A stretch of 64,000 nucleotides of DNA from an uncultured Lentimicrobiaceae bacterium (GTDB lineage: Bacteria > Bacteroidota > Bacteroidia > Bacteroidales > WCHB1-69), in NCBI GenBank assembly GCA_964598505.1, contig CAZRCF010000001.1:150543-214542 (forward strand). The letters run 5' to 3'. The translations under genes and the position numbers were made by a program. Under the pieces are notes generated by a model. The model was given only the letters and a program-made list of their open reading frames with translations, was not told the DNA's origin and did not search any database. This document shows positions 7,505-57,876 of the stretch, one piece after another (positions within the stretch are counted from its first letter, which is position 1; every line of letters starts with the position of its first letter).

Positions 7505-7507
7505 TAT

Positions 7508-8406: not shown

Positions 8407-8442
8407 CTTTTACATCCTTTTTATTAAAATAAAATTTAGATA

Positions 8443-8477: not shown

Positions 8478-8479
8478 AA

Positions 8480-8516: not shown

Positions 8517-8536
8517 AAAATGTTAATAAATTCTTT

Positions 8537-9469: not shown

Positions 9470-9509
9470 TCCAATCAATCTCCTTATTTTTATTAATATA
9501 TTCTTTAAT

Positions 9510-9597
9510 TGGCGGAGAGAACAGGATTTGAACCTGTGAATCTTTCGATTGCCAGTTTTCAAGACTGGTTCCATAAGCCAAACTCGGACACCTCTCC
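9510..9597 (-). tRNA. tRNA-Ser (anticodon UGA), type II with long variable arm, encoded CCA
   Basis: Hand-folded cloverleaf. Acceptor GGAGAGG/TCTCTCC, anticodon arm CCAGT-CTTGAAA-ACTGG, variable stem AATC-GAAA-GATT, T arm CAGG-TTCAAAT-CCTG. Confidence 0.9.
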
Positions 9598-22690: not shown

Positions 22691-22766
22691 TGGAGCTGAT
22701 GGAGGGAGTCGAACCCCCGACAGGTTGATTACAAATCAACTACTCTTCCAACTGAGTTACATCAGC
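22691..22766 (-). tRNA. tRNA-Thr (anticodon UGU), encoded CCA
   Basis: Hand-folded 76-nt cloverleaf. Acceptor GCTGATG/CATCAGC, D arm ACTC-AGTTGGAA-GAGT, anticodon arm GTTGA-TTTGTAA-TCAAC, T arm GGGGG-TTCGACT-CCCTC. Confidence 0.88.
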
Positions 22767-28196: not shown

Positions 28197-29504
28197 TTAT
28201 TTTGTTGCTGCATAAATTGCCGTTAATGCATCATACTTAATTGTATATGGACATTTATTTGCAGACGTTACAGATGTCCACATTGATTTTGCATATTTCG
28301 GATGCATTTTTGTTTTAGCTTCTTCTTGAGCTTCTTTTGTGAATAAGGCCACTACAGCCATTGCGTCACCATCGAAGTCACCACCAACCCTATCAAGATC
28401 TAGTGGATTTAATGACATTGTAATACCTTCTCTTTTAACTCTTACGTTGGCTGCTAGCCATGAGTCTCTATTTTCGACGGGATCGCGTTTGTATATAATA
28501 ACTTTATCTTTAACAATATCTTCGGCTACATGCACAAAATAATCAACCATGTCTTCTGGAATGATTTCAGGTTTGTCTATTGCCGCAGCAAAAAGTTTCT
28601 TTAAATCAATAACATCAATATCAACATCTGATTTTAATAAATATTGAATTGACTTTAACATATTTCTGTCTCTTTTTAAAATATGATTTATTGCGAATGG
28701 TTCAAATAGTTTTAATACAACTGCCCAATGTAATCCAACTGTGCCCAAGGGCAACGTGTTATCCGTTGTAATAATTAATCTTCCAGAGTAGTCAACTACT
28801 TTTCTCATTAACCCACCACGAATCAAACCAGATTTACCTTTAAGACGATTCTTAATCCAATTATTAATTTCTAAAACAGTTTTCTGAATTTGTTCTATAA
28901 TTGGTCTTTTAATTTCATCAGGAAGAGTTTTAAAATCTGATCCAAGTGTATTTGTATGTCTAATTAAATTTGTATATAATTCGGACAGATCTGAAAAATT
29001 AACAAGTGTTTTATTCGTAGTTTTTGAGATAGATAGATCTCTGATTCCTGCCGGTAAAATCAAATATTTATCAATAAATATTTTATCTTTATTGTTTTTT
29101 ATAAAAGCAACATTTTTTGGTCTATTCTTTTTGAAATTATCAAGATCTATTTTCTTAAATATCGATATAAAATAATCTGTTCCTGAAGAACCTTTTTCTG
29201 AATCTTCAATAAGTACACCTTCTTTATTTACAATGTATTGCGCTTTTGATGTTATAAGTTTAGATATTGAAGGATCTAATCCAGTTATAAGTGAATATGC
29301 TTCAGGATGTATAATTGGAACTTTGAGATTTACATATGCAAATCTTTTCCTACGTTCATTTGATCCAAATTTGCCAAAAATTTCCTCTGAGAATAACCCA
29401 TTTGGATCAGTCTTCTCAAGTTTTTCATATAGCCGAATTGTTGATACCGGCTTGAGCTTATTGTCCTCTATATATTTATCAATATTAAGCAATTCAAGTT
29501 TCAT
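28197..29504 (-). CDS. multisubunit RNA polymerase beta-prime homolog, N-terminal catalytic module
   Basis: LKGKSGLIRGGLMRKVVDYSGRLII ([23 protein letters not shown]) and the catalytic GGDFDGDAMAV (NADFDGDQMAV). Confidence 0.85.
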   Translation of the reverse strand: MKLELLNIDKYIEDNKLKPVSTIRLYEKLEKTDPNGLFSEEIFGKFGSNERRKRFAYVNLKVPIIHPEAYSLITGLDPSISKLITSKAQYIVNKEGVLIEDSEKGSSGTDYFISIFKKIDLDNFKKNRPKNVAFIKNNKDKIFIDKYLILPAGIRDLSISKTTNKTLVNFSDLSELYTNLIRHTNTLGSDFKTLPDEIKRPIIEQIQKTVLEINNWIKNRLKGKSGLIRGGLMRKVVDYSGRLIITTDNTLPLGTVGLHWAVVLKLFEPFAINHILKRDRNMLKSIQYLLKSDVDIDVIDLKKLFAAAIDKPEIIPEDMVDYFVHVAEDIVKDKVIIYKRDPVENRDSWLAANVRVKREGITMSLNPLDLDRVGGDFDGDAMAVVALFTKEAQEEAKTKMHPKYAKSMWTSVTSANKCPYTIKYDALTAIYAATK

Positions 29505-30579: not shown

Positions 30580-31458
30580 TTATATAATTGGAATAGAAAC
30601 ACATTTTGATTTTCTTACATCAACATACTCGTCTCTATGCTTGAAGTTATTAAATACCCAAACATGTGCTCGAGGACTAAATACATATCCTTTTCTCATA
30701 CAATAATCAATTGTATCATAACTAGATTTTCTAAAGTCTTCTAGAAATTTCATTTCAGTCTTATATTCCAAATAATCTGGAGTTAAAGGCATTATACAAA
30801 TATTACAAACATAAGGAATGTCTGTAATAAATTTATTAATTAATTCTTCTTCAGCTTTAGAATATACAAATTTCCAAGTAATTGTAGTTGGTGTTTCTTC
30901 TAATATTTTCCGATACGATTCTCTATAATTCTCATCAAATAATGAAATTATATCATCAACTGTTTTAATCTTATCAGACCTATAATAACTAGGATCTAGC
31001 TTAGGGGATATATTAATTTGTATAGTTTTATCCCAATGATAGAAAAGCATTTTGTCAGTATTGCTGTTTAACAATACTCCATTTGTTTCAATTTCAATTT
31101 TAGTAATATTCTTTAAATTGGTGTTTTTGTTATATATTAAACTTCCAATAAATTCTTTATTCATTAGAGGTTCACCACCAGTTAGAAGAATGGTGTTGAT
31201 TTGAAATTTATTCAAGAATTGTTCATTCAGATAATTTATAAAATCATCTATGCTTGTTTCATCAACAGTGAACGGCAAGATCTTATTTCTAGAACTAAAT
31301 TTCTTAACATCTTTAATCTTTAAATTATTTGACCATGAGGTATCACACCATTCACAATCTAAATTACAATTGCCCATTCTAATGAGTAATACTGGTGTTC
31401 CCACGCTAGGACCTTCACCTTGTACCGTAGGAATTAACTGACTAATAATTGTTTTCAT
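30580..31458 (-). CDS. queE: 7-carboxy-7-deazaguanine synthase QueE (radical SAM)
   Basis: TVQGEGPSVGTPVLLIRMGNCNLDCEWCDT matches the QueE N-terminal signature with the CxxxCxxC-type cluster. GGAGG SD upstream. Confidence 0.85.
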   Translation of the reverse strand: MKTIISQLIPTVQGEGPSVGTPVLLIRMGNCNLDCEWCDTSWSNNLKIKDVKKFSSRNKILPFTVDETSIDDFINYLNEQFLNKFQINTILLTGGEPLMNKEFIGSLIYNKNTNLKNITKIEIETNGVLLNSNTDKMLFYHWDKTIQINISPKLDPSYYRSDKIKTVDDIISLFDENYRESYRKILEETPTTITWKFVYSKAEEELINKFITDIPYVCNICIMPLTPDYLEYKTEMKFLEDFRKSSYDTIDYCMRKGYVFSPRAHVWVFNNFKHRDEYVDVRKSKCVSIPII

Positions 31459-41144: not shown

Positions 41145-42890
41145 TTATTTTGGTGAAAGTGGTTCTGGTTCAAATCCTTTAGGTGGTAAAGGTTCTGATT
41201 GTGATACTGTCTCTTTTTTTGGTTTAATCAATCTTAACATTGCATATTTATTAATGCACTCAAGAGTAGCATCTTTTAGCTGTCGCCGCTTAAAAATATT
41301 AGCAATATAAACTGGAGTATGAATATAATCATTTGTATTAATTCCGGTTTTTGGATCTTTTTCCAGATTATATAATTTTCCAAATTGCAACCAAATTGGA
41401 GTAGTATTTGTTGTTTCATATAATTCAATTTTGTCTATATGTTCTCTGAATATTCCAATATTGTCCATAATTCTTTGTTCAGCAGGTTTTATATCATCAG
41501 GGACATAAATTCTTAAAGATGTCATTCTTGAATCTTGAGTTTCAGATGTATTATCTGCCATTAATGTTTTCGGAAGTGTTCCTAATTTTTTTAATGTTTG
41601 TGTCATATTTGTTTTTATAAAATTAATTACGGCATTTGGTCGATCAAGAATTGATTCTGTATCGGCAAATGGTTGTGAATCTATACGATGAGTAAATGTA
41701 GTAATATTTGCATCTTTTGAAATATCAACTTTTTCAAAAGTTTTATAACAATTGAAGAAATTAATTAGTATAGCCCATATTGGAATTTTTCCATTAATAG
41801 GTTTTGAATCTTTATCATAATCTCCAAAATTAAAACTATCAAAAAACCAAAAACTTGGTGTACTAAATGGCTTATATGTATTATTAATATATTCTGGAAC
41901 ATTAATTTCTGGAATTGTTGGAGGAATTGTTATCTGTTCATAATGATGTAAATTTACTGTACTCTTATCTGCTAACACAATTTGTTTAATATTTTTTGAA
42001 TTTCCAGCGTATTTCTTTATCATGTAATCTGTGAATGAGCTCATTTGTGATGTTTTTATTTGAGGATTAAAACTATTATTTATTATTGTTTCCAAAGCAA
42101 TCAACTCTGGATTCTGAGAAGAATTGGTATCCGTTTTAGTATAAGGTGTAAATACGACATTAAATCCTGTATTTACTGACATTTGCCATGCTATTGGATT
42201 CTCAAGAACAATTCTACATGGAATTGCTCCTTCTGCAGTTGTTCTATCAGTTGTTGTTTTGTCTTTTTGACGCTCACACACTCTAATCACAACAAATGAT
42301 GAATATAATTTTAATTTAATATTGTCATCGGCTTCATTCGATTTATCGATATCTTTTATTTGATGACATGTTAATTCATATTCTGGAAATTTTTTTTGAC
42401 TTAATTCAACTTCGATAGCATCCAAAGTGGCATTTGGTATCATTGCTTCCATATCTATAAGTACACCTTGTTTTTTAATAGGATCTCTTATAAATGCGAT
42501 ATATTGAAAATCTGTTATGTGTGGAAGGGATTTATCTAATATATTTGTGCGTGATAGAATAAATTCATATACAGCTGTTGTTGTATCATCTTTAGTGGCA
42601 TTTTGTTTATTTGATGTTGTAACTTCGGATACAGAAGCTTTTACATTAGAGACAATCTTATCTGCACTTGTTATAGTTGTTGATAATGCTTTTTTAGCAT
42701 CAGATGATATAGAATCTAGTTTTGCTTGGGCACCAGGAATTGATGTTGATATATCTTTCTTTGCACTAGAAATTATATCTGCAACTGTTCCTAATGCGTC
42801 AGAATTTGTTCCAGCCGATGCTGCTTCAATTTTTGCAACTGTACCTTTCATATCTTCTTTTACTTTTGCAAGAACACTCATCGCGTCCAT
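41145..42890 (-). CDS. large hypothetical protein (581 aa), possibly structural
   Basis: Start moved to MDAMSVLAKV (GGAGAT 8 nt upstream), downstream of the hairpin. No motif recognised. Confidence 0.6.
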   Translation of the reverse strand: MDAMSVLAKVKEDMKGTVAKIEAASAGTNSDALGTVADIISSAKKDISTSIPGAQAKLDSISSDAKKALSTTITSADKIVSNVKASVSEVTTSNKQNATKDDTTTAVYEFILSRTNILDKSLPHITDFQYIAFIRDPIKKQGVLIDMEAMIPNATLDAIEVELSQKKFPEYELTCHQIKDIDKSNEADDNIKLKLYSSFVVIRVCERQKDKTTTDRTTAEGAIPCRIVLENPIAWQMSVNTGFNVVFTPYTKTDTNSSQNPELIALETIINNSFNPQIKTSQMSSFTDYMIKKYAGNSKNIKQIVLADKSTVNLHHYEQITIPPTIPEINVPEYINNTYKPFSTPSFWFFDSFNFGDYDKDSKPINGKIPIWAILINFFNCYKTFEKVDISKDANITTFTHRIDSQPFADTESILDRPNAVINFIKTNMTQTLKKLGTLPKTLMADNTSETQDSRMTSLRIYVPDDIKPAEQRIMDNIGIFREHIDKIELYETTNTTPIWLQFGKLYNLEKDPKTGINTNDYIHTPVYIANIFKRRQLKDATLECINKYAMLRLIKPKKETVSQSEPLPPKGFEPEPLSPK

Positions 42891-42916
42891 ATTATTATCT
42901 CCAAAATTGATTATTA

Positions 42917-42939
42917 GCAAGATCACTAATAGATCTTGC
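42917..42939 (-). terminator. degenerate copy of the CGGCAAGATCT palindromic element
   Basis: The right arm AGATCTTGCCGATA is intact. The left arm has decayed to TTAGCAAGATCA, leaving the 8-bp stem GCAAGATC/GATCTTGC. Confidence 0.45.
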
Positions 42940-42957
42940 CGATACATTTATTAAGTT

Positions 42958-43284
42958 TTATATTTTACGTTCCTGATAATCTCCAAAGATTTTATTTATC
43001 TTATTTTTTGCTTCTATTCTCATTTTATTTATATCTCTTATTTGTAAAGCTCTTTTGCCTACTTCTTCTAACGGCATATCTTTTCCATTTCTAATATCCG
43101 CTTCTAAAATCCATATCTTTGAGTTAGCTTCTATAAGATCAGCCATACTATCAAAAATTCCGGTATCATAACGTTCTATCTCTTTTTTAATTTCAATATA
43201 TTCATCTCCAATATTATCTAATACTCTTGCTTTCATTCTTAAAATAGACCATTTGTCAAATATGTCACCTACTGTCATTTTCAT
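42958..43284 (-). CDS. DUF4254-like protein (family often linked to glycosyltransferase loci)
   Basis: Pattern DKWSILRMK ... NSKIWILEADIR ... IRDINKMRIEAKNKIN resembles DUF4254. Weak, by eye only. Confidence 0.35.
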   Translation of the reverse strand: MKMTVGDIFDKWSILRMKARVLDNIGDEYIEIKKEIERYDTGIFDSMADLIEANSKIWILEADIRNGKDMPLEEVGKRALQIRDINKMRIEAKNKINKIFGDYQERKI

Positions 43285-43291
43285 AAAGTTA

Positions 43292-43858
43292 TTATTTCCT
43301 CCATGCCGTAAAGGTAGTTCTTGAATCATCTTGAAAAGTTAATGTTACGTTTTCAAGACGATTCATAAACTTTTCCATTGTAATTCTATCTGTTTTATCT
43401 GCATGCCATTCTATTGCCCATTTTCGAATTTTTAGTAATTCGTCGTCTGATAATTCAGGTAAGAAATCTTTTTCAGTTCCTTCACAATCTATTTTTAGGA
43501 AATCTATCTTTTCTAAATTATTAAGAATGCTTTTAAAACTAATAAAATCAACTTCCTCTGGAACTCCTCTTGTTAAATAAATTCCACTACTAGGTGTATC
43601 GTTTATGTCAAAATATATATTTCCTTTTCCATTATTTAAACAAACTGCAGCTTTTGTTAATTCTACTTCTTTAATTAATTTGCATATTTTGAATAATTTA
43701 TTGCATGGTTCAAACGCTATAATTCTTCCTGCTTTTTTAGATTTAGCATAATATATAAACTCTCCAACATGTGCACCAATGTCAACTACTATATCTCCTT
43801 CTTCAACATCACAATTTGGGGTTATATACGTATTAATATCTGTTACTGGATTAATCAT
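43292..43858 (-). CDS. FkbM-family SAM-dependent methyltransferase
   Basis: VVDIGAHVGEFIYYA ... IIAFEPC matches the FkbM (TIGR01444) N-terminal signature. ATGA overlap with the upstream gene. Confidence 0.7.
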   Translation of the reverse strand: MINPVTDINTYITPNCDVEEGDIVVDIGAHVGEFIYYAKSKKAGRIIAFEPCNKLFKICKLIKEVELTKAAVCLNNGKGNIYFDINDTPSSGIYLTRGVPEEVDFISFKSILNNLEKIDFLKIDCEGTEKDFLPELSDDELLKIRKWAIEWHADKTDRITMEKFMNRLENVTLTFQDDSRTTFTAWRK

Positions 43859-45300
43859 ATTCGACTCATTTCTGGTGTGCGAGCAAAACACATCTTACAT
43901 ATATTTGGAAAATCGTGATTAAGAAGTTGTTTTCTCCACAAATTCCACCTACTTAAAAATTTATCATATCCATCACGAATATCACCAATGTACATTTCAG
44001 ATTGCCAATCTCCACAACATACATGTCCTTTACCACAATAATCTACAATCAATTCCCAATTAGGTCTACCACATCTTTCGATATTATTACCTTCTATCTG
44101 TTGTATTCTTCCGTCCAGAGCACCTTGTTGAAACCTTATATTTTTACAAGTGTCTGAAAGAATATTGAGTGCAGTAGTATTTGTTTCTGGATAAATTGTA
44201 ACCATAACATCTGTAAATCTTTTTATAAGAAATTTGTCTTCGATTGATAAATTTATTCCGTTTGTCCACAGTGAGTATTTTGCTTCTGGAACAGCCTCTA
44301 TTATCTCAATTAGTTTATCTTTTGACAATAGGGGTTCATTATAATAATGAACATTAACAAGACCATCAAATCCTCGATTTATACAATGGTGAAGAAATCC
44401 GATAATATCTTTTGTTTCAAGTGGATTTCCTATTAGTTTTCGAGTGTTTCTTGGACATTCTTTATGTAAATTAGTAAGTTGACATTCATCGTTTATCTCA
44501 AATGCAAGATGTTTAAGAAAGTGAAGATCAATATGTGTATCCAGAATTGGTAATACCATATCGTTTTTGTGGGAATTACATGCAAGTACAATATCATTTT
44601 TTGTTACTGTGAAATGTTGATATCCATATCCTTTTTCCTTATTTTCTTTACTAAATCGTTTCTTGCGAAGAAGTCTTCTTGAAATTGCTAATGATGGATC
44701 TGCCATTTGCCAATGAACACCACTATATCTTTCTGCACAAAGATTGAACTCCTTTTCTAATTCGTGATTTCCAGGTTTAAATTGAATACCTATTCCTGGT
44801 CTAATAACAATAGGTTTTACATAATATATATTTGCAGCAGTATGTTCTGACTGCCAAGTTGATAGTCGATCGGGATCGCCATGTAATCTTTGTGGAACAG
44901 GTAAATCATTATAATCAAGATCTTTGTCGTCTTTATGCCGATATACTTGATATAACCATGCTAATATTATATCTCCTTCTTGGCGTTTTAAGAACTCTTT
45001 AGAATTTTCCCATGAAGCTGGAAATATAAATTCGTCCGGGTCAACAACATAGACCCAATCACATTTTATTAAGTTAAGTTGTTCATTTATTATTCGTACT
45101 TTTTGTGAATCATCAAGTCCTTCTTCTATATGACATGGAATTATTTTAATATTATTATATGATAAAAGAATACTCTCTGTTTTATCATCTGTATCAGTTT
45201 CTAGAAGGACCCTAATTTCGTCAACATCTTTATAATGATTACAAAAAAAATGAGCCATTTGCTCTTCATTATACATCATCGTAATGATTCCAATTCGCAT
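43855..45300 (-). CDS. two-domain protein: GT2-like glycosyltransferase N-domain + Cys-rich radical-SAM/SPASM-like C-domain
   Basis: N-terminus MRIGIITMMYNEE... is GT-A-like. C-terminus has VHYYNEPLL, WTNG, CGRPNWELIVDYCGKGHVCCGDW...IGDI...CKMCF (SPASM/twitch-like). No canonical CxxxCxxC motif was seen. Confidence 0.4.
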   Translation of the reverse strand: MRIGIITMMYNEEQMAHFFCNHYKDVDEIRVLLETDTDDKTESILLSYNNIKIIPCHIEEGLDDSQKVRIINEQLNLIKCDWVYVVDPDEFIFPASWENSKEFLKRQEGDIILAWLYQVYRHKDDKDLDYNDLPVPQRLHGDPDRLSTWQSEHTAANIYYVKPIVIRPGIGIQFKPGNHELEKEFNLCAERYSGVHWQMADPSLAISRRLLRKKRFSKENKEKGYGYQHFTVTKNDIVLACNSHKNDMVLPILDTHIDLHFLKHLAFEINDECQLTNLHKECPRNTRKLIGNPLETKDIIGFLHHCINRGFDGLVNVHYYNEPLLSKDKLIEIIEAVPEAKYSLWTNGINLSIEDKFLIKRFTDVMVTIYPETNTTALNILSDTCKNIRFQQGALDGRIQQIEGNNIERCGRPNWELIVDYCGKGHVCCGDWQSEMYIGDIRDGYDKFLSRWNLWRKQLLNHDFPNICKMCFARTPEMSRI

Positions 45301-45334
45301 AGATTTCCTTTCTTTTTAATTCTAAAAAAATTGT

Positions 45335-45370
45335 TTATCGGCAAGATCTAGTTAAAGATCTTGCCGATAA
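45335..45370 (-). terminator. terminator; 28-bp CGGCAAGATCT palindromic element
   Basis: 15-bp stem TTATCGGCAAGATCT/AGATCTTGCCGATAA with loop AGTTAA. Confidence 0.7.
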
Positions 45371-45372
45371 AT

Positions 45373-45549
45373 TTATTTATTCTCAAGTTTAATTAATTGT
45401 AAATCATATCCAGCCTTATTGATATATTCGAGAATTTCAATACATAAACATTTATTTGTTGTTGTGCCGTTCTTTGGTTTTTCATTCCAAAATCCATCAC
45501 CAAATTTAGTAATACATTTGTATACGATTTTCATATCAGAAGCTTTCAT
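45373..45549 (-). CDS. small hypothetical protein (58 aa), paralog of the C-terminal part of 45546..45842
   Basis: ATGA overlap with the upstream stop. Shares the ..KAGY(D/N)L(Q/K)LIK.. segment with the neighbouring ORF. Confidence 0.4.
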   Translation of the reverse strand: MKASDMKIVYKCITKFGDGFWNEKPKNGTTTNKCLCIEILEYINKAGYDLQLIKLENK

Positions 45550-45842
45550 TTTATATTCTCCAATTCTTGTGAGATAACTTTTAATAAGCTTTTAATAATA
45601 TGTGGATGATTCTTTATTTTAAATTCTAAAGTAGCATCTCGAATAACTGAATTTTCCTTACCGATATCTACATTTAATACAATTTGGTTATCTATATATT
45701 TTTCTGGATTCTCTCCAATTTTAATTAATTTTAAATTATATCCAGCTTTATGTAAACAATTTACAACATCATTACTTACTTTTCCTGGCTGGTTTAAATC
45801 AACATCTATTATATTTTTAAATAGAGTTTCATCAAGATTCAT
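45546..45842 (-). CDS. hypothetical protein (98 aa)
   Basis: ORF track; overlaps the end of ligA by 4 nt. Confidence 0.5.
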   Translation of the reverse strand: MNLDETLFKNIIDVDLNQPGKVSNDVVNCLHKAGYNLKLIKIGENPEKYIDNQIVLNVDIGKENSVIRDATLEFKIKNHPHIIKSLLKVISQELENIK

Positions 45843-47740
45843 TTTTTATTTTCCTTTATCAAAGATATTAATTCTGTTTCCGTTATAACTTTAACACCTC
45901 TTTCAACTGCTTTTTTGAATTTACTTGAATCACTCGGAGTATTACAAATTAAATAATCACATGATGATATACTTGAATTTGTCCCTCCAAACTTTTCAAT
46001 TATTTGTTCATAAGCTTTTCTTGGCTTACTTAAACTTCCAGTTATACAAAAGCTTTTGCCGGTTAAAGGACCTTTTACAGATACAAAATTTATACCAGTA
46101 TCCATTAATTTCTTTAATAATTCTTTATTCTCTTTTAATCCTTTAATAACTGAAGTTACTTTTATTTCTCCAAGTCCTTTGACTTGAATTAATTTAGTAA
46201 TCATAGTTTTTAACAAATCTTGGTTATCAAGAGCATTAATAATGTCTTGCGGTGAAAAGTTTTCCAAAATTAATTTAGATGTTGTATTTCCTAAATTATC
46301 AATTCCAAAAGCGGCAAGAATCTTTTCAGGTCTTGCTTTTTTAGTTTGTTCAATTCGATTTAAAAAATCATCAGTTGATGTTTCTGCCCAACCATCTAAT
46401 TTTAAAATATCTTCTCTCTTTAAATTATAAATATCAATAACGGTTTTACAACCTAAACTTGTAATCATCTTCTCACTAAAGTTTTCAAGTCCAAGCTTCT
46501 CAAAGAAATATGCTATTCCTTTTTGAGTTTGTGCAGGACAATTTTGGTTAGTGCAATATAAATGTGTTTTGGTATCATCGGTTTCTAACGGATGATGTTT
46601 ACAAGTTGGACACGCTATTAATCCACCAACATTTTCAGATGCTTTAATTACATTTTCAATATATGGAATAACATCTCCAGATCGAACAATCTTAATGATT
46701 GCTCCTGGTCCGATGTTATTATCATAAATGAATTTTGCATGAAATCCTGTTGCTCTCTTAATTGTTACTCCACCCAAGTTAACTGGTTTAATTTTCACCA
46801 CTGGAATAATTTTTCCAGTTCGAGAAGTATTCCATTCAACTTCTTCAACTTTCGCTTCTATTGCCATTTTATTAAACTTAAATGCTATTTTCTTTTCGGG
46901 AAGTTTAATATTTTCAACTGCTGAACTATTAACTGTTACAACAATCCCATCTTTATCATATTGAGTTGTTTGTTCAAATAATTTTTTAGCAACTTCAATC
47001 ACTATTGTTTTAGTATCTGCGTGAGCAAAATTAACTACTGAATTGTTTAAAATTCCAAATGTTTCTTGCATATACTTCATGCGTCCAAGTTCATTAGTTT
47101 CAAGATCAGTTGGTATAAATTGATTTGGAACATATGTATGAAATATAACATAAAGATGTTGTAATTTACTATGATCATCTCTATTAATTATTCCCGCTGC
47201 AGCATTACGTTTAGTCTTATATGGAGTTCCATCATCTCTCTTAATCGATTCTGGTTCACAATTTAAGAGAATTTCACCTTTAAAATATTGTTTACCAAGT
47301 GGTTGAGACCGAATACAACTATGAGTAGGAGTAAATTTAAGAGCCTTAGCTGTAATATTTTCACCCACATAATGATCACCTCTTAACCAAGCTCCTGTTA
47401 AAGTACCATCCGTGTATTCACATTCAATTGCAACTCCATCAAGTTTATGAGATAGAACAAATCCACTTCCATTGTCATTTTTATCTAACCAAGCTTGAAT
47501 ATCATCTTCAAATTTATTCGTTAAGCTACCTAAAATAAATGGTAATGTTTCTTTATTCTTTTTAGGTTTATTTCCTATCTTTAATAAGAATTTACTATTT
47601 GGTCTTAATTGTTGTAAAATTCTTTTATAATGATCATATTCATTATCTGGAATTTTTATTTCTCCAATTTCATAAGCTTCTAAACAAGATTCTAATTCTT
47701 GTTCAAGTCTGTCTAAGTCTTCAGTTGTATACTCTTCCAT
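45839..47740 (-). CDS. ligA: NAD-dependent DNA ligase LigA
   Basis: Adenylation motif KLDGVA, Zn finger CPTC...C.NQNCPAQ, HhH region, C-terminal BRCT-like GKSFCITGSL. Confidence 0.9.
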   Translation of the reverse strand: MEEYTTEDLDRLEQELESCLEAYEIGEIKIPDNEYDHYKRILQQLRPNSKFLLKIGNKPKKNKETLPFILGSLTNKFEDDIQAWLDKNDNGSGFVLSHKLDGVAIECEYTDGTLTGAWLRGDHYVGENITAKALKFTPTHSCIRSQPLGKQYFKGEILLNCEPESIKRDDGTPYKTKRNAAAGIINRDDHSKLQHLYVIFHTYVPNQFIPTDLETNELGRMKYMQETFGILNNSVVNFAHADTKTIVIEVAKKLFEQTTQYDKDGIVVTVNSSAVENIKLPEKKIAFKFNKMAIEAKVEEVEWNTSRTGKIIPVVKIKPVNLGGVTIKRATGFHAKFIYDNNIGPGAIIKIVRSGDVIPYIENVIKASENVGGLIACPTCKHHPLETDDTKTHLYCTNQNCPAQTQKGIAYFFEKLGLENFSEKMITSLGCKTVIDIYNLKREDILKLDGWAETSTDDFLNRIEQTKKARPEKILAAFGIDNLGNTTSKLILENFSPQDIINALDNQDLLKTMITKLIQVKGLGEIKVTSVIKGLKENKELLKKLMDTGINFVSVKGPLTGKSFCITGSLSKPRKAYEQIIEKFGGTNSSISSCDYLICNTPSDSSKFKKAVERGVKVITETELISLIKENKK

Positions 47741-47753
47741 TTTTTATTTTCCT

Positions 47754-48662
47754 TTATTTAAATTCTAATATAAGATCTAAATAATCTTCTCTCCAGTATG
47801 GGTATATTTCTCCATTTAATGCTCTCAAAAGATTTTCTGCCGATAAACATTTTACTAATTCATTTTCACCATTTACATGCAAGTGAACATTTTGAGGATA
47901 TAGGTACGACATTCCTCCGAAATCATTAATATTACCATTTGGTTTTGGAAGATAAAATCTATCTAAAGATGGTTTATCTGTAATAATAATTCCTTTAACG
48001 TCTAGAGCTGCAGCGATATGCATTGGTCCAGAATCTATTCCTATAAAATATTCAAATGTTGCAAATCTTTTTATCATTTCTTCAGTAGGTAAACTAAAGT
48101 ACTCCACATTCTTTAAGTGTGGAGTACTTTGTTTAGCAAACGTTTCAACAAAATGAAATTTATTATTGTTATTATCTACAAATTTTTGAATAAGAGGAGT
48201 TATGATATCTGTTAGATAATGAAATGAATGCCCTTCTATATTAATAAGAATTGTATTCGGAATTTTATTACATCTGAAATTAATATATGGTTTTGGTTTA
48301 ATATCTATTTCAAAATCCATTGCTCTGCTTTGAACTTGTAACCAATGGCCATTTCCAGCATCTATATCATACAATTGACATATTGCATTATATTTTGATA
48401 GATCTAATTCATCTTCCGAAATATAATAATCATTAAAAACCATTAAAGGTTCAAAAAATGTGCTTTGACTAAATATATGAACTTCCCGATTTGCTTTAAA
48501 AGCTTTTTTTGGTATGATTGATAAAAAAGCTGTATCTCCGAAATTCCAAGAAGTATTAGTCCAATTCATAGCATAATCAATAAATTTTATTTTTCGATCT
48601 GTTGGAAATTGTTTATTAACTTTCTTGATCATTGAAAGAATATCATCTTTTGTATATATCAT
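47754..48662 (-). CDS. glycosyltransferase family 9 (heptosyltransferase-like)
   Basis: IGIDSGPMHIAAALDVKGIII matches the GT9 D(S/T)GxxHLAAA motif. Confidence 0.65.
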   Translation of the reverse strand: MIYTKDDILSMIKKVNKQFPTDRKIKFIDYAMNWTNTSWNFGDTAFLSIIPKKAFKANREVHIFSQSTFFEPLMVFNDYYISEDELDLSKYNAICQLYDIDAGNGHWLQVQSRAMDFEIDIKPKPYINFRCNKIPNTILINIEGHSFHYLTDIITPLIQKFVDNNNNKFHFVETFAKQSTPHLKNVEYFSLPTEEMIKRFATFEYFIGIDSGPMHIAAALDVKGIIITDKPSLDRFYLPKPNGNINDFGGMSYLYPQNVHLHVNGENELVKCLSAENLLRALNGEIYPYWREDYLDLILEFK

Positions 48663-49075
48663 ATTTCTTCTAAAATTTGATTAATTTGTGTATTTGTTAA
48701 TCCACAAGATGCAGATTTATTCAAAATTCTTAATACCACTTCTACGGTTTCAGGATCAGATGATGAAATCTTTTCTAAGAAAGATTTCTCTTCATCTGAT
48801 ACATCTCCAGTTTTTGAATTTAAATAATCTAACATTTCAAAAATTCCATTAACATGTTGATTCTCTGCGGCTGCAGTATCATCAAAATATACACAGTAAT
48901 TGATTTTTGTTAGTCTAAATGAATATTTTGGATCTATTATATATGTTAAAACTTTTCTCAAAGTTTGACCAAATATTGGATCTTTTAGATGTTTTCTTAA
49001 TACTTCTTCTTTATTCATTTGTGAATGATTTATATTCTCTAGTATTTCATATATAACTTTTAAGCTTATTAACAT
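48659..49075 (-). CDS. hypothetical protein (138 aa)
   Basis: ORF track. TAATG overlap with the beta N-module gene. Confidence 0.5.
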   Translation of the reverse strand: MLISLKVIYEILENINHSQMNKEEVLRKHLKDPIFGQTLRKVLTYIIDPKYSFRLTKINYCVYFDDTAAAENQHVNGIFEMLDYLNSKTGDVSDEEKSFLEKISSSDPETVEVVLRILNKSASCGLTNTQINQILEEI

Positions 49076-50241
49076 TAGTATACCTCATCAACGAATTGTC
49101 CAAACATATCTAATTTTGTTTCTGCAATTATATAAATTGTTTCTCCTGGATTTTGTGAACTAACACTTGTTGGACATATCTTTTGAAAATGTGTTGGATG
49201 TAAATTAGCTATCATACTTGGCGCTTGTTCTGCATTTGGGCTTAACATGTAAGCTTTATGTTGTAGCATTGTATCATATGCATTTACATTATCATAAATA
49301 AATTTATTGTGTAAACTTGTATAGAAATTCTTAACAATCTCCATTTGATCCATTTGAATTTCATTAATATAAAATCCTCTTGAAGCTCTTGAAGCTGTTT
49401 GGGCAATACGTTTAAATATTGGCCAAAGTAGTATTTCAAGAAATACAAGTCTTTTTTGTGTAAGATCAATAAACGAATCATCGGTCATTGTCTTATTTAA
49501 ATCAACAACAATTTTTAATAGTGTTTGAATGTTTAAATCTTTCTCATCTATATTATAACATTGTTTATATAGTAATTTTGAATAATCATCAAAAAATATG
49601 TCGTGGAAATGTTTTTGTATTGTAGCTCTGTCCGGATCACATTTGAATAGATTACTAAAATAACTTAATAAATCTTGCTCAGATATTTGAGTTGTTGTTA
49701 TTTTAAATTCCTTTATAAATTCTTGTTTTGTTGCGGCTTGATCTGGAATATTATCTGATAAGAATATATTCAAAAAGTATATTGCCGGCATATTATTACC
49801 CATAAATGTTATCAATTTATCATATATCGTAATCGAATTAAATGTGCCCGATAGTTTAACTGATTTCTTTTTAATAACAATGGGTTTATCTAATACATAC
49901 AATGTTGGTACAAAGTTATTCCCATTAAGAATAAAGAAACAATCATCAATTAATGTCGGAATAAGAAATTTCATAAATATCTTATTTGTAGCAACATTTT
50001 GATTCATAAAATTTATTTCAACAGTTACTTGTGTGAGAGAACTATTATATATCCCATTATATGTTTGTAATTCTCTAATAGTTATATTATGAACTGTTAG
50101 ATAATTTTTATTCTGTTTGGATATATATTCAACACACAAGTTCATAAAATAGTTGATAAGACTATATTGGGCAGATCTGAAGCTACCGATTGTAAAATAA
50201 TTACTTTCGGCAACTTCAGATACTTTGGTTAGAAGATTCAA
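49075..50241 (-). CDS. multisubunit RNA polymerase beta homolog, N-terminal module (split gene), TTG start
   Basis: The C-terminal end HFQKICPTSVSSQNPGETIYIIAETKLDMFGQF aligns with beta HYGRICPIETPEGPNIGLI..YA..N.YGF. AGGAGG lies 6 nt before the TTG. Confidence 0.7.
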   Translation of the reverse strand: MNLLTKVSEVAESNYFTIGSFRSAQYSLINYFMNLCVEYISKQNKNYLTVHNITIRELQTYNGIYNSSLTQVTVEINFMNQNVATNKIFMKFLIPTLIDDCFFILNGNNFVPTLYVLDKPIVIKKKSVKLSGTFNSITIYDKLITFMGNNMPAIYFLNIFLSDNIPDQAATKQEFIKEFKITTTQISEQDLLSYFSNLFKCDPDRATIQKHFHDIFFDDYSKLLYKQCYNIDEKDLNIQTLLKIVVDLNKTMTDDSFIDLTQKRLVFLEILLWPIFKRIAQTASRASRGFYINEIQMDQMEIVKNFYTSLHNKFIYDNVNAYDTMLQHKAYMLSPNAEQAPSMIANLHPTHFQKICPTSVSSQNPGETIYIIAETKLDMFGQFVDEVY

Positions 50242-50699: not shown

Positions 50700-52658
50700 T
50701 TAAGATTTCAAAAATTGAAGACTCACATCCACCACCTGTTTGGTTCGACTTTTAATCGGTCGATTTTCTGGAAGATCATATTTACCATCCACTACAAGTT
50801 GTCTAACTAAATCTTTCTTTCCAGCTGTCCAATCACTTTTTACAGATAAAATTTCTTTGACTGCTAGATCACACCCGTGTGCTAACATACTTTCTAACTC
50901 CATTTGACCAACTCTACTTCCACCACCTCTTGCTCTACCTTTGGTTGGTTGTTTAGTTATACTTTTGACACTACCAAAATCTCGAGCATTTATAATTTTA
51001 GAAACTAATTTTGATAATTTCTGAATATAAATCGGGGCACATAGGATATTTTTTAAATAAACATCTTCATCTGGAAATTGTGTTTCTAATTTTAATTTTT
51101 GTTTGATAAATTTAATCGTTTCTTTTTTAATTAAAACTGTCTCTTTATAATTGATTGTATTTTTTACTAATGTTTTTATGTCAACTTCTGCAAAAGAAGG
51201 AGATTCCACAAATAAATTTGATTGATTGATATTTTCAACAAATTGATTTCTAAATTCATCATTATCTAAATTATCAATAATTTCATTTTTGACTCTTAAA
51301 TAATATTTATCATCAATATGTTTTAAAACAGATTCGTTTAACCAAGTTATTATTTCTTTTGAATTTTCGGGATTTGTTCTAATATGTTCGTCACAATACA
51401 TAACTGATTTTCCAACTAATGCTTCCAATAGTTGCCCAAGATTCTGCCGACTAAATACACTAAAAGGATTATAAATTAAATCAATTTGTTTATTTGAAGT
51501 TGTTGCAATTGGTCGCAATTCATCTGGAAGAATCAAACTGACTATTCCTTTTGCAGCATATCTGTTTGCAATTTTGTCACCGATTACTGTTGGACAATCT
51601 TTTGATATTTCTAATTCAATAAGGTAACATAAATTATTAAGTCCTATTTCTCCTCTTGATCCTTTTGTTTTTTCAATATACATATAATATTTTTGAAGAA
51701 TATATCCAACATATTGTGAATTAAAACATTTTAGAAGATCACTTCTTGTTTGTACAACAAAAGTTCCATATTTTAAATATAATTGATCCATCATATTTTC
51801 TAATTTTTGATCGATCATTACTTGTGTTCCTAGTTTTTTGAATTTATGAATTTTGATACCTGAAATAGTACCATTTTCAACTTTTGTTTTAATTTTATCA
51901 ATTGCAAATTTACCATCTCCACAGAATCCCATATTCAATAAATCTGATAATGACATATTCTTCAATGACATTTGAACTTTATTTTTTAGATCTGAATAAT
52001 TTGCTGTCGAACTATCTCTTGGAGCAATCAAACAACATACTATATCATCCTTAATTTTTTGTCCAATTGCAGGAAAATATACATATGAATCTTGATAATC
52101 TTTATAAAATTCTTGCATTAATGTATATTCATATATCGGAATATACACTTTATCAACTTGTGAATATCTAGCTTTGTCCGCTAAACTTTCAGAAATCGTA
52201 ATAGCGTCCTCGTGATTGTATCCGAAAAATGGCATGTATGCTGTAAAAACATTATATCCATAGCTCGGAACATGACCTATGAAACAATCATAATTTGCTA
52301 AAATATCCCCTCTTTTAAATTTAGATTTATTTGGAATCACATATCTCAGTTTTGTTCCAAAAGAACCTGTTGTCTTTTTTATCGGCGGAAGACTTATATC
52401 GACAACTTTATTAAGATTTGAATATTGAACAATTAATAAATCTTGATTTTTATATAATACCTCTCCATCATCCTTAGCTAATACCACTCCCATCTTAGAG
52501 GAATTTGTTACAGTATAATAATCAGATCCAATAACATATGGAATTTCAGTATTCAAGCTTGTTAATGCTTGTTGAATTTGTTTCGCACTCATCGAAGCTC
52601 TTGTACTGTCAGTTGAGCTAAGAAATGGAATAGTATTTAAATTTACACTTACAATCAT
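50700..52658 (-). CDS. multisubunit RNA polymerase beta homolog, C-terminal module (split gene)
   Basis: Begins IVSVNLNTIPFLSSTDSTRASMSAKQIQQA ([30 protein letters not shown]). Also NRYAAKGIVS and GGGSRVGQMELESMLAHGC. Confidence 0.85.
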   Translation of the reverse strand: MIVSVNLNTIPFLSSTDSTRASMSAKQIQQALTSLNTEIPYVIGSDYYTVTNSSKMGVVLAKDDGEVLYKNQDLLIVQYSNLNKVVDISLPPIKKTTGSFGTKLRYVIPNKSKFKRGDILANYDCFIGHVPSYGYNVFTAYMPFFGYNHEDAITISESLADKARYSQVDKVYIPIYEYTLMQEFYKDYQDSYVYFPAIGQKIKDDIVCCLIAPRDSSTANYSDLKNKVQMSLKNMSLSDLLNMGFCGDGKFAIDKIKTKVENGTISGIKIHKFKKLGTQVMIDQKLENMMDQLYLKYGTFVVQTRSDLLKCFNSQYVGYILQKYYMYIEKTKGSRGEIGLNNLCYLIELEISKDCPTVIGDKIANRYAAKGIVSLILPDELRPIATTSNKQIDLIYNPFSVFSRQNLGQLLEALVGKSVMYCDEHIRTNPENSKEIITWLNESVLKHIDDKYYLRVKNEIIDNLDNDEFRNQFVENINQSNLFVESPSFAEVDIKTLVKNTINYKETVLIKKETIKFIKQKLKLETQFPDEDVYLKNILCAPIYIQKLSKLVSKIINARDFGSVKSITKQPTKGRARGGGSRVGQMELESMLAHGCDLAVKEILSVKSDWTAGKKDLVRQLVVDGKYDLPENRPIKSRTKQVVDVSLQFLKS

Positions 52659-57087: not shown

Positions 57088-57876
57088 TTAATAATTTGTC
57101 ATTATTGCTACTGCATTGTGAGCGTGAATTGATTCATCGGATTCTACACTTACTTTAAATTTCTCAACATCTTCCATTTTATCTAATTTATCATATACGG
57201 CGCGAGCTATATCTTCGACAAACATTGGACTATTGTATGCTCTTTCTGTAACTACTTTTTCATCAATTCTCTTAAGTACTGAAAATATTTCACAAGATGA
57301 AGATGATTCTGCCGCTTCAATAAGGGATTCAATCCAAATAAATGAATTCTCTTTTCCTTGAACTACCATATCAATTAATACTTTCTGATTGTGTGCTCCA
57401 TATTCAGATATTTCTTTTGAGCAAGGACATAGAGATGTTGCTAATACTTTGACACCCAATCTAAATATGAAATTGTCTTTTGTTTTAATTCCAGTAAAAG
57501 AAATATGATATGGAAGTATACCAGGTTCCTGAGAAGCTGGAGCTAACTTCTGAACAAAATATGGAAACGAATAACTTATTTCACAAGTATCCGCTTCCGC
57601 TGAAATTCTTATATTTTCTGCAATTGAACTAATTAGTTTACCATTAAGTTGTTGTCCAACAAATTTCTGTAAACCAATTATTAATCTACTCATATTTGTT
57701 CCTTTAAGATTAGCAGCGAGATCTACATAACAATCAACTTTAGCAACTGAATGTTGTACTCCTCCGTTCTTCATTGAAACAAAAATAGGAAGTTCAACAG
57801 AATTGATACCAACTCTATTGATCCTAATTTCATGTACTGGTAATGTGTATTGCATATCCGGTAAGTTTTCTGACAT
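57088..57876 (-). CDS. folE2: GTP cyclohydrolase IB (FolE2 / GCYH-IB)
   Basis: N-terminal LPDMQ, RVGIN..ELPI, and SLCPCSKEIS..GAHNQ metal-site motif. AGGAGA SD upstream. Confidence 0.85.
   Translation of the reverse strand: MSENLPDMQYTLPVHEIRINRVGINSVELPIFVSMKNGGVQHSVAKVDCYVDLAANLKGTNMSRLIIGLQKFVGQQLNGKLISSIAENIRISAEADTCEISYSFPYFVQKLAPASQEPGILPYHISFTGIKTKDNFIFRLGVKVLATSLCPCSKEISEYGAHNQKVLIDMVVQGKENSFIWIESLIEAAESSSSCEIFSVLKRIDEKVVTERAYNSPMFVEDIARAVYDKLDKMEDVEKFKVSVESDESIHAHNAVAIMTNY

Follow-up and report, generated by a model that had tools for sequence, protein, structure and literature searches.

A conserved phage gene cassette for putative glycan assembly on both sides of ligA, with a BtrN-like domain carrying a His-for-Cys cluster motif

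The window, a 64-kb stretch of DNA (64,000 nucleotides), derives from a giant bacteriophage with a 256-kb genome and its own multisubunit RNA polymerases. On its minus strand, where all features described here are located, a gene for a GT9-like glycosyltransferase is followed by ligA, two small ORFs, a terminator-like hairpin and genes for a fusion protein, an FkbM-family methyltransferase and a 108-residue protein. A sequence-only reading had placed LigA and the two small ORFs between the last three genes and the GT9 gene; all genes were found at these positions and, in profile and fold searches, most of the proposed family assignments held. Database homologues scored far above chance for every cassette gene. 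Overlapping stop and start codons (ATGA) occur at four junctions, fusion/FkbM, 138-residue ORF/GT9, LigA/98-residue ORF and 98-residue/58-residue ORF. The proposed coupling of the fusion, FkbM and 108-residue genes by such overlaps is thus correct for the first pair, but the second is separated by a 7-nt gap.

LigA, an NAD-dependent DNA ligase of 633 residues (45839..47740), had been recognized correctly, as seen from its Pfam domains (adenylation, OB, Zn-finger, HhH and BRCT) and its match to phrog_3869 (E=5e-121). Its gene separates the two cassette parts and is no glycosylation gene itself. The two small ORFs (45373..45842) encode 98 residues (45546-45842) and 58 residues (45373-45549) and are coupled by ATGA overlaps to ligA and to each other. 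They had been called paralogous, and they indeed have an 18-residue stretch in common with 44% identity (pairwise E=4e-4), but their similarity is limited to that stretch. Among these two ORFs there is also a weak match to LPD26 (E=2.9e-4).

Between the stop codon of the 58-residue ORF and the start codon of the fusion, a terminator scan identified a hairpin (45334..45371) with a perfect 16-bp stem and a 6-nt loop, followed by CAATTTTTTT. Its predicted RNA fold has an energy of -26.4 kcal/mol (z=-6.7), which none of 200 shuffled sequences equalled, and the stem is conserved in a relative of the phage (L003). The GT9-like gene and ligA thus belong to one unit, and the fusion, FkbM and 108-residue genes to another. 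Because the hairpin separates them, we infer a joint function of the GT9-like gene and the other three only via their co-occurrence elsewhere.

The fusion protein (481 residues, 43855..45300) consists of a GT-A domain of the GT2 type and a BtrN-like domain. The GT-A domain (residues 1 to ∼250, 44551..45300) matches PF13704 with E=4.4e-7 and 30.7 bits (gathering score 27.5), contains an intact DxD motif in VVDPDEF (D87-P-D89-E90) and, in Foldseek searches, has SunS/ThuS, TarS, TarP and SpsA as fold matches, in agreement with its earlier description as GT2-like. Its nearest relatives, with 45–50% sequence identity, are the glycosyltransferase domains of cellular proteins in which the transferase is fused to a methyltransferase (PF13578 or class I), encoded in Wzm/Wzt polysaccharide loci, of which one includes Wzt_C and another has genes for rhamnose and mannose synthesis. 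In concept, we take these fusions to resemble chain-modifying enzymes of the WsaE/WbdD type. The phage genes retain the pairing of transferase and methyltransferase, but with FkbM encoded separately and a BtrN-like domain as the fusion partner; transporter genes are absent.

The C-terminal part of the fusion (residues ∼262–481 and the stop codon, 43855..44517) had been described as a SPASM/twitch-like domain without an obvious CxxxCxxC. Along its entire length, it proved to be a homologue of BtrN (4M7T, 4M7S), the 2-deoxy-scyllo-inosamine dehydrogenase of butirosin biosynthesis, which combines a radical-SAM and a twitch domain and is of similar size (∼230–250 residues). A profile comparison against PDB yielded E=4e-9 for 4m7t, and Foldseek E=3.3e-11 with TM-scores of 0.69–0.73. 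The two have the motifs H-F/Y-Y-G/N-E-P-L-L and Y/W-T-N-G in common, which read H-Y-Y-N-E-P-L-L and W-T-N-G in the phage, and an arginine (LDxR) aligns with one in BtrN (LSNR). Further, C410, C428/C429, C468 and C471 align with four cysteines of the BtrN twitch domain, presumably the ligands of its auxiliary [4Fe-4S] cluster. The major difference is in the cluster motif, C16-x3-C20-x2-C23 in BtrN, which is replaced by C-x5-H-x2-C-P (C273-QLTNL-H279-KE-C282-P283, 44452..44484), with histidine in place of the middle cysteine and a two-residue insertion.

This motif is invariant in seven homologues of the fusion and, in the wider family of this Fe-S domain, which comprises at least 1,512 clusters, 145 of the 149 best representatives have it, the aligned stretch being absent from the other four. 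None of the Pfam and NCBIfam models reached its cut-off on family members. GT-A-type domains are found in eight of ten sampled multidomain members; an Anaerotruncus member is a GT2 fusion, Planctomycetia members adjoin GT6 and a galactosyltransferase-like gene, and clostridial members lie within NRPS clusters with UDPGT and a carbamoyltransferase. The fusion had been considered unusual. This is true for the exact GT-A/BtrN-like arrangement, of which we found only about seven cluster representatives, but fusion or adjacency of the Fe-S domain to GT-A domains is recurrent in metagenomes. The unusual features are rather the histidine that invariably replaces a cysteine in the motif and the lack of any curated family, and the variant marks a large, uncharted enzyme family that is repeatedly fused or adjacent to glycosyltransferases.

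The methyltransferase (188 residues, 43292..43858), whose start codon overlaps the stop codon of the fusion, was assigned with confidence to the SAM-dependent FkbM family, as anticipated, by PF05050 (E=1.1e-11), TIGR01444 (E=1.9e-17; 64 bits, cut-off 37.7) and phrog_8156. Its stop codon is followed after a 7-nt spacer by the gene for the 108-residue helical protein (42958..43284), which has GGAGG upstream of its ATG. The DUF4254-like nature proposed for this protein is without direct Pfam support, as it had no match at E≤0.1 and only one of four close homologues reached E=0.034; the relationship, to DUF4254/DUF6165, is transitive, via annotations of PF14063 or PF19662 among the 85 homologues obtained in a profile search. 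No relative was found in PDB. In L001, L002, L003, L005–8 and L032, an FkbM or radical-SAM gene directly precedes the homologue, and the protein thus travels with SAM-using enzymes.

The GT9-like glycosyltransferase (302 residues, 47754..48662), whose start overlaps the stop codon of an upstream 138-residue ORF, had been proposed to be heptosyltransferase-like. This was supported by a match to PF01075 (E=1.2e-5; 25.2 bits, gathering score 22), which covers only 32 residues (194–225) but is carried by about 30 homologues. An AF2 model (pLDDT 94, pTM 0.92) has a GT-B fold, with TibC, WaaC, WaaF and a Veillonella GT9 protein as top PDB matches in Foldseek. The GT9 assignment is based on the 32-residue Pfam match and on the moderate TM-scores (∼0.5) of these fold matches. 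The enzyme has in common with WaaC, WaaF and TibC, besides the fold, the C-terminal donor-binding motif G-x-D-S-G-P-M-H-x-A-A-A-L, but it is shorter and similar in sequence over only ∼32 residues; ADP-heptose is a possible donor. All Pfam, NCBIfam and PDB-profile matches were within residues ∼183–241, with no GT9 sequence similarity in the N-terminal acceptor domain.

Parts of the cassette recur in other phages. The fusion and the 108-residue protein co-occur in the window, L001, L002, L003, L032 and L033, at GC contents of 29–53%; in L032, L033 and L037 the GT-A and BtrN-like portions are encoded by two neighbouring ORFs. The window, L003 and L007/8 have FkbM immediately upstream of the gene for the small protein; in L005/6 a radical-SAM gene takes its place and two FkbM genes lie further upstream. 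Homologues of the GT9-like enzyme adjoin FkbM genes in the large phages L009 and L011. Replication and nucleotide-metabolism genes, rather than structural genes, surround the cassette genes in the window, L001, L009 and L011. The podovirus fragment L002, by contrast, has an enlarged cassette (fusion 70%, small protein 69% identical) between an SU10-type major capsid gene and a putative portal gene, so called because annotated portal proteins are matched by its L032 homologue.

The sugar-transfer and methylation set that had been proposed is thus present, with a GT-A and a GT-B glycosyltransferase, FkbM and a BtrN-like Fe-S domain of sugar type, and it recurs in unrelated phages. We consider it probable that the segment is a conserved phage cassette by which a short glycan is built and tailored in the host cytoplasm from host nucleotide sugars; in a Pfam scan of the ORFs of at least 200 residues in the 64-kb window, no genes for nucleotide-sugar synthesis were recognized. 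The glycosyltransferases would attach one or more sugars to the acceptor, the Fe-S domain may work on a sugar C-H or C-OH, in analogy to BtrN, which oxidizes a cyclitol hydroxyl, to yield a keto-sugar, an epimer or a similar product, FkbM would O-methylate the sugar, and the 108-residue protein may help the SAM-using enzymes. BtrN has a sugar-like substrate and the Fe-S family occurs in sugar gene contexts, but the phage domain is fused or adjacent to glycosyltransferases and is known here from its sequence and predicted fold. Since it lacks the middle cysteine, which is required in canonical radical-SAM enzymes, radical chemistry by this domain is not assured. A catalytically dead relic, serving as a structural, Fe-S-binding or sugar-binding module on an active glycosyltransferase, is a possibility that we consider the less probable one; it concerns this domain only, is compatible with any target, and would reduce the chemistry to plain glycosyl transfer and methylation. 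CX3CX2C is missing from every family member examined and NCBIfam has a precedent for such loss in the ‘pseudo-SAM/SPASM’ family TIGR04347, radical-SAM/SPASM homologues without the canonical motif, which matches members weakly (29.5 bits against a cut-off of 525, SPASM-like part only). Unlike that family, however, the Fe-S family has retained a strictly conserved C/H/C motif, held with its proline by purifying selection in all representatives with an aligned stretch, alongside H-Y-Y-N-E-P, W-T-N-G, D-x-R and all four twitch cysteines. Moreover, the histidine is exactly three residues ahead of the last cysteine, the second-cysteine position of CX2C, and conserved histidines are competent Fe-S ligands in other enzymes.

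As acceptor of the glycan, a virion protein is most likely, followed by a host polysaccharide, with DNA least likely. The virion is favoured because the 70%-identical cassette of L002 sits between portal and capsid genes; moreover, TibC, which the GT9-like enzyme matches best in fold, is a protein heptosyltransferase. The non-structural neighbours in the window, L001, L009 and L011 count against it. Virus-encoded glycosylation of virions has precedents in the capsid and tail-tube glycosyltransferases of mycobacteriophages and in the chlorovirus PBCV-1 protein A064R (GT-GT-methyltransferase), which likewise involve cytoplasmic GT-A enzymes, methyltransferases and host sugar nucleotides; to our knowledge, none of these systems has an Fe-S domain. 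Many GT2 proteins of phages and giant viruses are among the fold matches in BFVD. Alternatively, the cassette could cap or alter a cytoplasmically assembled host polysaccharide (O-antigen, S-layer or wall glycan, by the ABC-transporter route), changing the receptor and blocking superinfection, or interfering with export. The relatives of the GT-A domain beside Wzm/Wzt, Wzt_C and rhamnose/mannose synthesis genes, and the WaaC/WaaF fold matches, would suit this, LPS cores being the classical substrates of GT9 enzymes, as would an integrase fragment in L001, compatible with a seroconverting temperate phage. Nevertheless, we consider it improbable, given the size of the phage, its own RNA polymerases, the lack of a recognized integrase or lysogeny gene in the 64-kb window and the position of the L002 cassette; also, the cassette is 70% identical in phages whose GC contents differ widely, which makes different hosts and surface glycans probable. 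Still less likely is that the enzymes decorate a modified base of the phage DNA, such as a hydroxymethyl-pyrimidine or 7-deazaguanine derivative, against host nucleases, as the earlier reading had considered plausible. In phage DNA-hypermodification clusters, a 5mYOX/ThyS-like enzyme is combined with a GT-A (TarP/JGT-like folds are among those known) or GT-B glycosyltransferase, sometimes with further sugar-tailoring genes and often near replication genes (bioRxiv 10.1101/2023.12.21.572611). The window resembles them in having both folds near ligA, a FEN-like exonuclease, SSB, helicases and RNR, with replication modules also surrounding the cassette in L001, L009 and L011; it further encodes FolE2, QueD, QueC and a QueE-like radical-SAM protein, and the range of GC contents would fit a universal acceptor. 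However, its ORFs of at least 200 residues include no ThyA-like hydroxymethylase, TET/5mYOX, C5-methyltransferase or DpdA by Pfam, the GT-A relatives belong to polysaccharide loci, the GT-B enzyme is similar to GT9/TibC, with T4 beta-GT not among the 50 fold matches listed, and the L002 cassette belongs to a head-morphogenesis module. Neither radical-SAM nor FkbM components are mentioned in the phage DNA-glycosylation literature examined, including the clusters reported in bioRxiv 10.1101/2023.12.21.572611. The 64-kb window offers no support for DNA glycosylation.

Downstream of the 108-residue gene, after a 10-nt spacer, lies a gene for a 600-residue protein of unassigned function (41145..42947), without Pfam, PHROG or NCBIfam matches, which we include tentatively. 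Its link to the cassette is seen only in the close relative L003, where an 82%-identical homologue occupies the same position. The N-terminal 150 residues of the protein contain 22% serine and threonine.

The 481-residue protein encoded at 43855-45300, the fusion, joins an N-terminal glycosyltransferase of the GT-A/GT2 type to a C-terminal Cys-rich domain that is most similar to BtrN. In a search of PDB with a profile of seven full-length fusion homologues, BtrN was the sole match and covered the entire domain (E=4e-9); it was also the top fold match of the fusion AF2 model (pLDDT 94, E=3e-11, TM 0.69-0.73 normalised to BtrN). The domain has a partial TIM-barrel homologous to that of BtrN, with the GGE-like and the downstream SAM-binding motifs: H-F-Y-G-E-P-L-L of BtrN corresponds to H-Y-Y-N-E-P-L-L, Y-T-N-G to W-T-N-G, and L-S-N-R to L-D-x-R. 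BtrN reportedly oxidises a cyclitol hydroxyl, and its arginine is said to have a substrate-side role.

The domain differs from BtrN in the cluster motif. Canonical radical-SAM enzymes have a CX3CX2C (or other three-Cys) motif after β-strand 1, which ligates the SAM-binding [4Fe-4S] cluster, and to our knowledge the well-studied ones all hold the catalytic cluster by three cysteines. In the fusion this motif has two cysteines only: as the sequence-only reading had noted, there is no CxxxCxxC, and C273-x5-H279-x2-C282-P takes its place. The alignment of C-N-R-T-C-W-Y-C-P in BtrN with C273-QLTNL-H279-KE-C282-P283 shows two extra residues after the first cysteine and places the histidine three residues ahead of the last cysteine, at the position of the middle cysteine of CX2C. 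The Pfam radical-SAM model (PF04055) did not match the domain. Of the earlier SPASM/twitch-like assignment, the twitch part holds, with C410, C428/C429, C468 and C471 invariant and aligned to four cysteines of the BtrN twitch domain, which we take to be the ligands of its auxiliary [4Fe-4S] cluster. The SPASM part is weaker, the Pfam model matching only four of the seven fusion homologues (best E=0.006), although it exceeds the cut-off in other relatives of the domain. Since the cysteine set fits one cluster, the domain appears to be twitch-like rather than a full SPASM domain. Judged from its sequence, the His-substituted BtrN-like domain would be a new variant of the radical-SAM/twitch architecture.

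The homologues of this domain, here called the Fe-S family, form a large, uncurated and sugar-associated group, so that the fusion domain is no isolated, degenerate case. We used the domain profile in an exhaustive HMMER search, which gave 1,512 cluster representatives at E<=1e-3; 426 of them reach E<=1e-10 and 75 reach E<=1e-30. Among the best 149 representatives, C...H...C-P occupies the aligned columns in 145 and the other four lack the aligned stretch; 11 of the 149 have a CX3CX2C string elsewhere in the protein, but none has it in the motif columns. Near-invariance extends to E17, F60, G62, H67, Y69, E71, P72, W94, T95, N96, G97, D145, R147 and the twitch cysteines, among other positions. 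Of these 149 members, 97 consist of the domain alone, with about 250 residues, and 48 are longer than 450 residues. GT-A-type domains (Glyco_tranf_2_4, GT2, Glyco_transf_7C) were found, on either side of the Fe-S domain, in eight of ten long members scanned, and some long members also carry a sulfotransferase or phosphoribosyltransferase domain.

With a bacterial sub-alignment as query, the family was found in reference genomes of Planctomycetia, Acidobacteriota, Dehalococcoidia, Opitutaceae, Parcubacteria, Clostridia, Halanaerobiales and Synergistaceae; the same scan with a phage-only alignment found nothing. In Planctomycetia, where we examined one locus, the family gene lies next to GT6 and galactosyltransferase-like genes, and an Anaerotruncus member is fused to GT2. 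Searches of Pfam with the domain of the fusion homologues yielded no model beyond the weak SPASM matches, and searches of NCBIfam with ten diverse family members yielded none near its cut-off, the best being weak matches to spiro-SPASM, 'pseudo-SAM/SPASM' and twitch families. A full-text literature search for the CX5HX2C motif and for BtrN together with glycosyltransferases found nothing relevant.

Stand-alone CX5HX2C genes also occur, at about 6900-8750, in three loci from Lachnospiraceae (L019), Zhenhengia (L021) and Halanaerobiales (L022), directly upstream of an ORF of 2,300-2,380 residues, which in L021 is a confirmed NRPS. L022 has two such genes in tandem. In L019 the neighbours include genes for a UDPGT-type glycosyltransferase and for a carbamoyltransferase, and in L021 they include an SHMT-like gene and a further radical-SAM gene. 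These loci look like uncharacterised, probably glycosylated, natural-product clusters.

The GT2-like assignment of the N-terminal part of the fusion was borne out by a match to PF13704 (Glyco_tranf_2_4) of 30.7 bits, against a gathering score of 27.5. This part has a GT-A Rossmann-like fold and keeps the DxD metal/nucleotide-sugar motif in VVDPDEF, with D87-P-D89-E90 invariant; its Foldseek matches are SunS/ThuS, TarS, TarP and SpsA. Its nearest relatives, with 45-50% identity across the entire domain, are cellular proteins that combine the glycosyltransferase with a Methyltransf_24 or class I methyltransferase domain. We examined two genes of this kind, and both belong to polysaccharide loci that include Wzm/Wzt ABC-transporter genes, together with Wzt_C and a sulfotransferase in one (P0017) and with rhamnose and mannose nucleotide-sugar genes and further GT2s in the other (P0018). 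Because these nearest relatives are glycosyltransferase-methyltransferase fusions in polysaccharide loci, the GT-A domain derives from enzymes whose substrates are growing glycans and whose action is coupled to a methyltransferase.

The second glycosyltransferase, encoded beyond ligA at 47754-48662, had been called GT9-like. It matches PF01075 with 25.2 bits (gathering score 22), but only over residues 194-225, a stretch of 32 residues that corresponds to the donor-binding 'GIDSGPMHIAAAL'; about 30 of its 58 database homologues were already annotated with PF01075. As a PDB sequence-profile search with the family was not significant (E=0.2), we relied on fold comparison. The AF2 model (pLDDT 94, pTM 0.92) has a GT-B fold closest to GT9 structures, with TibC, WaaC, WaaF and a Veillonella GT9 (3TOV) as the best PDB matches (TM ~0.5), which agrees with the earlier call. 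We saw no ADP-heptose synthesis genes in the window.

Between the fusion and a gene for a 108-residue protein (42958-43284) lies the FkbM methyltransferase gene (43292-43858), whose assignment is secure: TIGR01444 matches with 64 bits against a cut-off of 37.7, PF05050 with E=1e-11 and 45.6 bits against a gathering score of 22.7, and the SAM-binding motif D-x-G-A-x-x-G is present as VVDIGAHVGEF. LigA is likewise, as proposed, a complete NAD-dependent ligase, with the Pfam series of adenylation, OB, Zn-finger, HhH and BRCT domains, a match to phrog_3869 (E=5e-121) and K-L-D-G (KxDG) in the translation. All ORFs of the island are present where the sequence-only reading had placed them, and that reading was real and largely right, with three details to correct: the junctions, the paralogy of the small ORFs and a DUF4254 label. 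The proposed coupling of the first three genes by ATGA overlaps applies to the fusion and FkbM; a 7-nt gap lies between FkbM and the 108-residue gene, whose ATG is preceded by GGAGG. Further ATGA overlaps join LigA to a 98-residue ORF, this ORF to a 58-residue one, and a 138-residue ORF to the GT9-like gene. The 58- and 98-residue ORFs, described as paralogous, share an 18-residue motif only.

A terminator-like hairpin (45334-45371, minus strand), with a perfect 16-bp stem followed by a T-run and a predicted RNA fold of -26.4 kcal/mol (z=-6.7), lies between the 58-residue ORF and the fusion gene. Since it separates the two, the island probably comprises two transcription units, 138aa-GT9-ligA-98-58 and fusion-FkbM-108aa(-600aa). 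We therefore dropped ligA as a functional part of the glycan pathway, which simply flanks it; the terminator-like hairpin follows the ligA unit. The stem is kept in L003, an 82%-identical relative (L003 1-40), where the 6-nt loop is reverse-complemented (TTAACT versus AGTTAA) and the contig terminates within the stem; this difference could reflect an inverted loop or an assembly that broke at the palindrome.

Two further ORFs of the island deserve mention. The 138-residue ORF (48659-49075, minus strand) shows similarity to ATP-dependent DNA ligases, in their DNA-binding N-terminal region (phrog_114, E=1.5e-7; weak PF04675). It is a free-standing ORF, with the GT9-like gene between it and the NAD-dependent ligase gene downstream. 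Directly downstream of the cassette, a 600-residue protein (41145-42947, minus strand) without family match has 22% Ser+Thr in its N-terminal 150 residues, which are also rich in Ala and Lys, and occupies the same position in L003; as a speculation, it is a candidate acceptor.

For the 108-residue protein, the DUF4254-like label fails in a direct Pfam scan (no match at E<=0.1) and survives by transitive homology only. One of four close homologues matches PF14063 (E=0.034), and a profile of the protein and its relatives retrieves 85 proteins, of which two are annotated as PF14063 (DUF4254) and three as PF19662 (DUF6165), at E of about 1e-14 to 1e-21. A PDB profile search gave coiled-coil noise only, and a literature search for DUF4254 and DUF6165 found nothing relevant. 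The small protein is present in six of the seven phage loci with a BtrN-like domain, counting L003 and L004 as one, and missing from all four loci that have a GT-A homologue only. It also occurs in large glycan islands that lack the fusion.

Although the exact fusion is rare, with seven cluster representatives, the parts of the cassette travel together. L003 and L004 (82% identical) have the same order as the window, fusion-FkbM-108aa-600aa. In L002, where the fusion is 70% and the small protein 69% identical, the order is fusion, radical SAM, TylF-like methyltransferase, hexapeptide acyltransferase, GT2, class I methyltransferase, B12-radical SAM, small protein, double GT2 with TPR, a 119-residue protein (Thr/Ser-rich by eye), a 311-residue protein and an SU10-type major capsid protein; the homologue, in L032, of the gene upstream of this cassette matches annotated portal proteins. 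In the more distant L001 (42-43% identical), genes for the fusion, a methyltransferase, a B12-radical SAM protein and the small protein follow those for helicases and a primase-polymerase, and an integrase fragment lies at the contig end. The IMG/VR loci L032, L033 and L037 encode the GT-A part and the BtrN-like part in two adjacent ORFs, a Rosetta-stone relation. One homologue of the GT9-like gene overlaps a 546-residue FkbM-containing gene in a 256-kb phage contig (L009), another, in L011, has an epimerase/dehydratase gene and an FkbM gene close by, and some are fused to methyltransferase domains. The cassette-related loci range from 26 to 53% GC.

The glycan islands without the fusion are each one locus assembled in two samples (L005/L006 and L007/L008), on contigs of 42-175 kb that may come from a huge phage or a giant virus. 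Their genes include DegT aminotransferase, acetyltransferase, UDP-GlcNAc 2-epimerase, NTP-transferase, UDP-galactopyranose mutase and GT1/GT4/GT6/GT7C, with Cpn10 and ClpP (L005/L006) or an RyR domain (L007/L008) as neighbours. Both contain FkbM gene(s) and the small protein, which directly follows FkbM in L007/L008 and a radical-SAM gene in L005/L006.

The cassette thus comprises two glycosyltransferases, one SAM-dependent methyltransferase, one BtrN-like Fe-S domain and one conserved small protein, and we recognised no nucleotide-sugar synthesis gene among the ORFs of at least 200 residues in the window. The glycosyltransferase(s) would transfer NDP-sugars of the host; the Fe-S domain, by analogy to BtrN and from its consistent sugar context, may modify a sugar carbon; FkbM, whose family methylates hydroxyls on sugars, would methylate a hydroxyl; and the 108-residue protein may serve as a conserved helper. 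As a phage cassette for glycosylation and methylation, it is a further member of an emerging kind. A more far-reaching proposal, which we consider possible but rather doubtful, is that the C-x5-H-x2-C-P domain functions as an Fe-S enzyme, with Cys-His-Cys ligating the SAM-binding cluster. Its family would then be an unrecognised radical-SAM subclass of at least 1,500 sequence clusters, dedicated to glycan or sugar tailoring, and the phage fusion would decorate the virion or DNA with a non-standard sugar that is first oxidised, epimerised or C-modified and then O-methylated.

As acceptor we favour a virion protein, because the cassette of L002 and L032 lies in a head module, because the top fold match of the GT9-like enzyme, TibC, is a protein glycosyltransferase, and because glycosylation of virions by viral enzymes has precedents in mycobacteriophages and giant viruses (chloroviruses). 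The ancestry of the GT-A domain speaks for a host polysaccharide, which is a possible acceptor. DNA, also proposed from the sequence, is the least supported of the three: the location of the cassette in a replication module and its spread over phages of differing GC would fit, but the GT-B enzyme is not β-GT-like, and among the ORFs of at least 200 residues in the 64-kb window of the 256-kb genome we found no acceptor-base enzyme (dCMP/dUMP hydroxymethylase, or C5-MT with TET/5mYOX) and no DpdA. A comparison of ten further unannotated window ORFs with PHROGs revealed no DpdA or other base-modification gene either. Moreover, a study of phage DNA glycosylation (bioRxiv 10.1101/2023.12.21.572611) describes no radical-SAM or FkbM component.

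A large family that has strictly exchanged the middle cysteine for histidine and retains all other hallmarks would either extend the known modes of radical-SAM cluster ligation or represent a new use of the fold. A 256-kb phage that encodes its own multisubunit RNA polymerases shares the cassette with a small podovirus, at about 70% protein identity, which points to a portable decoration module. Such a module could affect adsorption, evasion of immunity or defence, or particle stability, and the set of GT, Fe-S, FkbM and 108-residue protein is small enough for heterologous expression.

The exact match to the fusion protein is on a 256,708-bp metagenomic contig. The window has 29% GC, all long ORFs examined are on the minus strand, and its genes include class II RNR, ThyX, dUTPase, RecQ and DEAD helicases, SSB, a FEN-like exonuclease and LigA. 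Among cultured phages, RNA polymerase β places PBS1/AR9 and Staphylococcus jumbo phages nearest, with identities of only 22-24%, and in searches of phage records the cassette is absent from cultured relatives: the region 42000-49500 had no blastn match in 50,697 phage records, the fusion and the GT9-like protein had no tblastn match in phages, and a protein-to-phage search with FkbM gave three weak phage matches only. A sigma-70 promoter scan was uninformative (74 sites versus 72.8 expected), the phage encoding its own polymerases. RNA polymerase fragments, split and β- or β'-like, lie on the minus strand at 14920-19614, 20510-22288, 28197-29504, 50700-52658 and 62385-63383 and include a 1,564-residue protein with Rpb2 domains; their sequences suggest two multisubunit sets, as in PBS1/AR9-type jumbo phages.

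The window also encodes 7-deazaguanine precursor enzymes, all on the minus strand: FolE2 (57088-57876; PF02649, E=2e-77), QueD (4354-5166) and QueC (7508-8221; E=3e-55), together with a QueE-like radical-SAM protein of 292 residues (30580-31458), probably QueE. The protein at 4354-5166 carries, N-terminal to its QueD (PTPS) domain, a pyrimidine-dimer DNA glycosylase domain (Pyr_excise, E=3e-14); to combine a DNA-repair glycosylase and a deazaguanine-pathway enzyme in one protein is unusual. An HNH/HTH homing-endonuclease-like ORF lies at the window edge (63468-63947, minus strand), and there are two tRNA genes, Thr-TGT (22691-22766) and Ser-TGA (9510-9597), the latter overlapping the start of the ORF 9053-9574.
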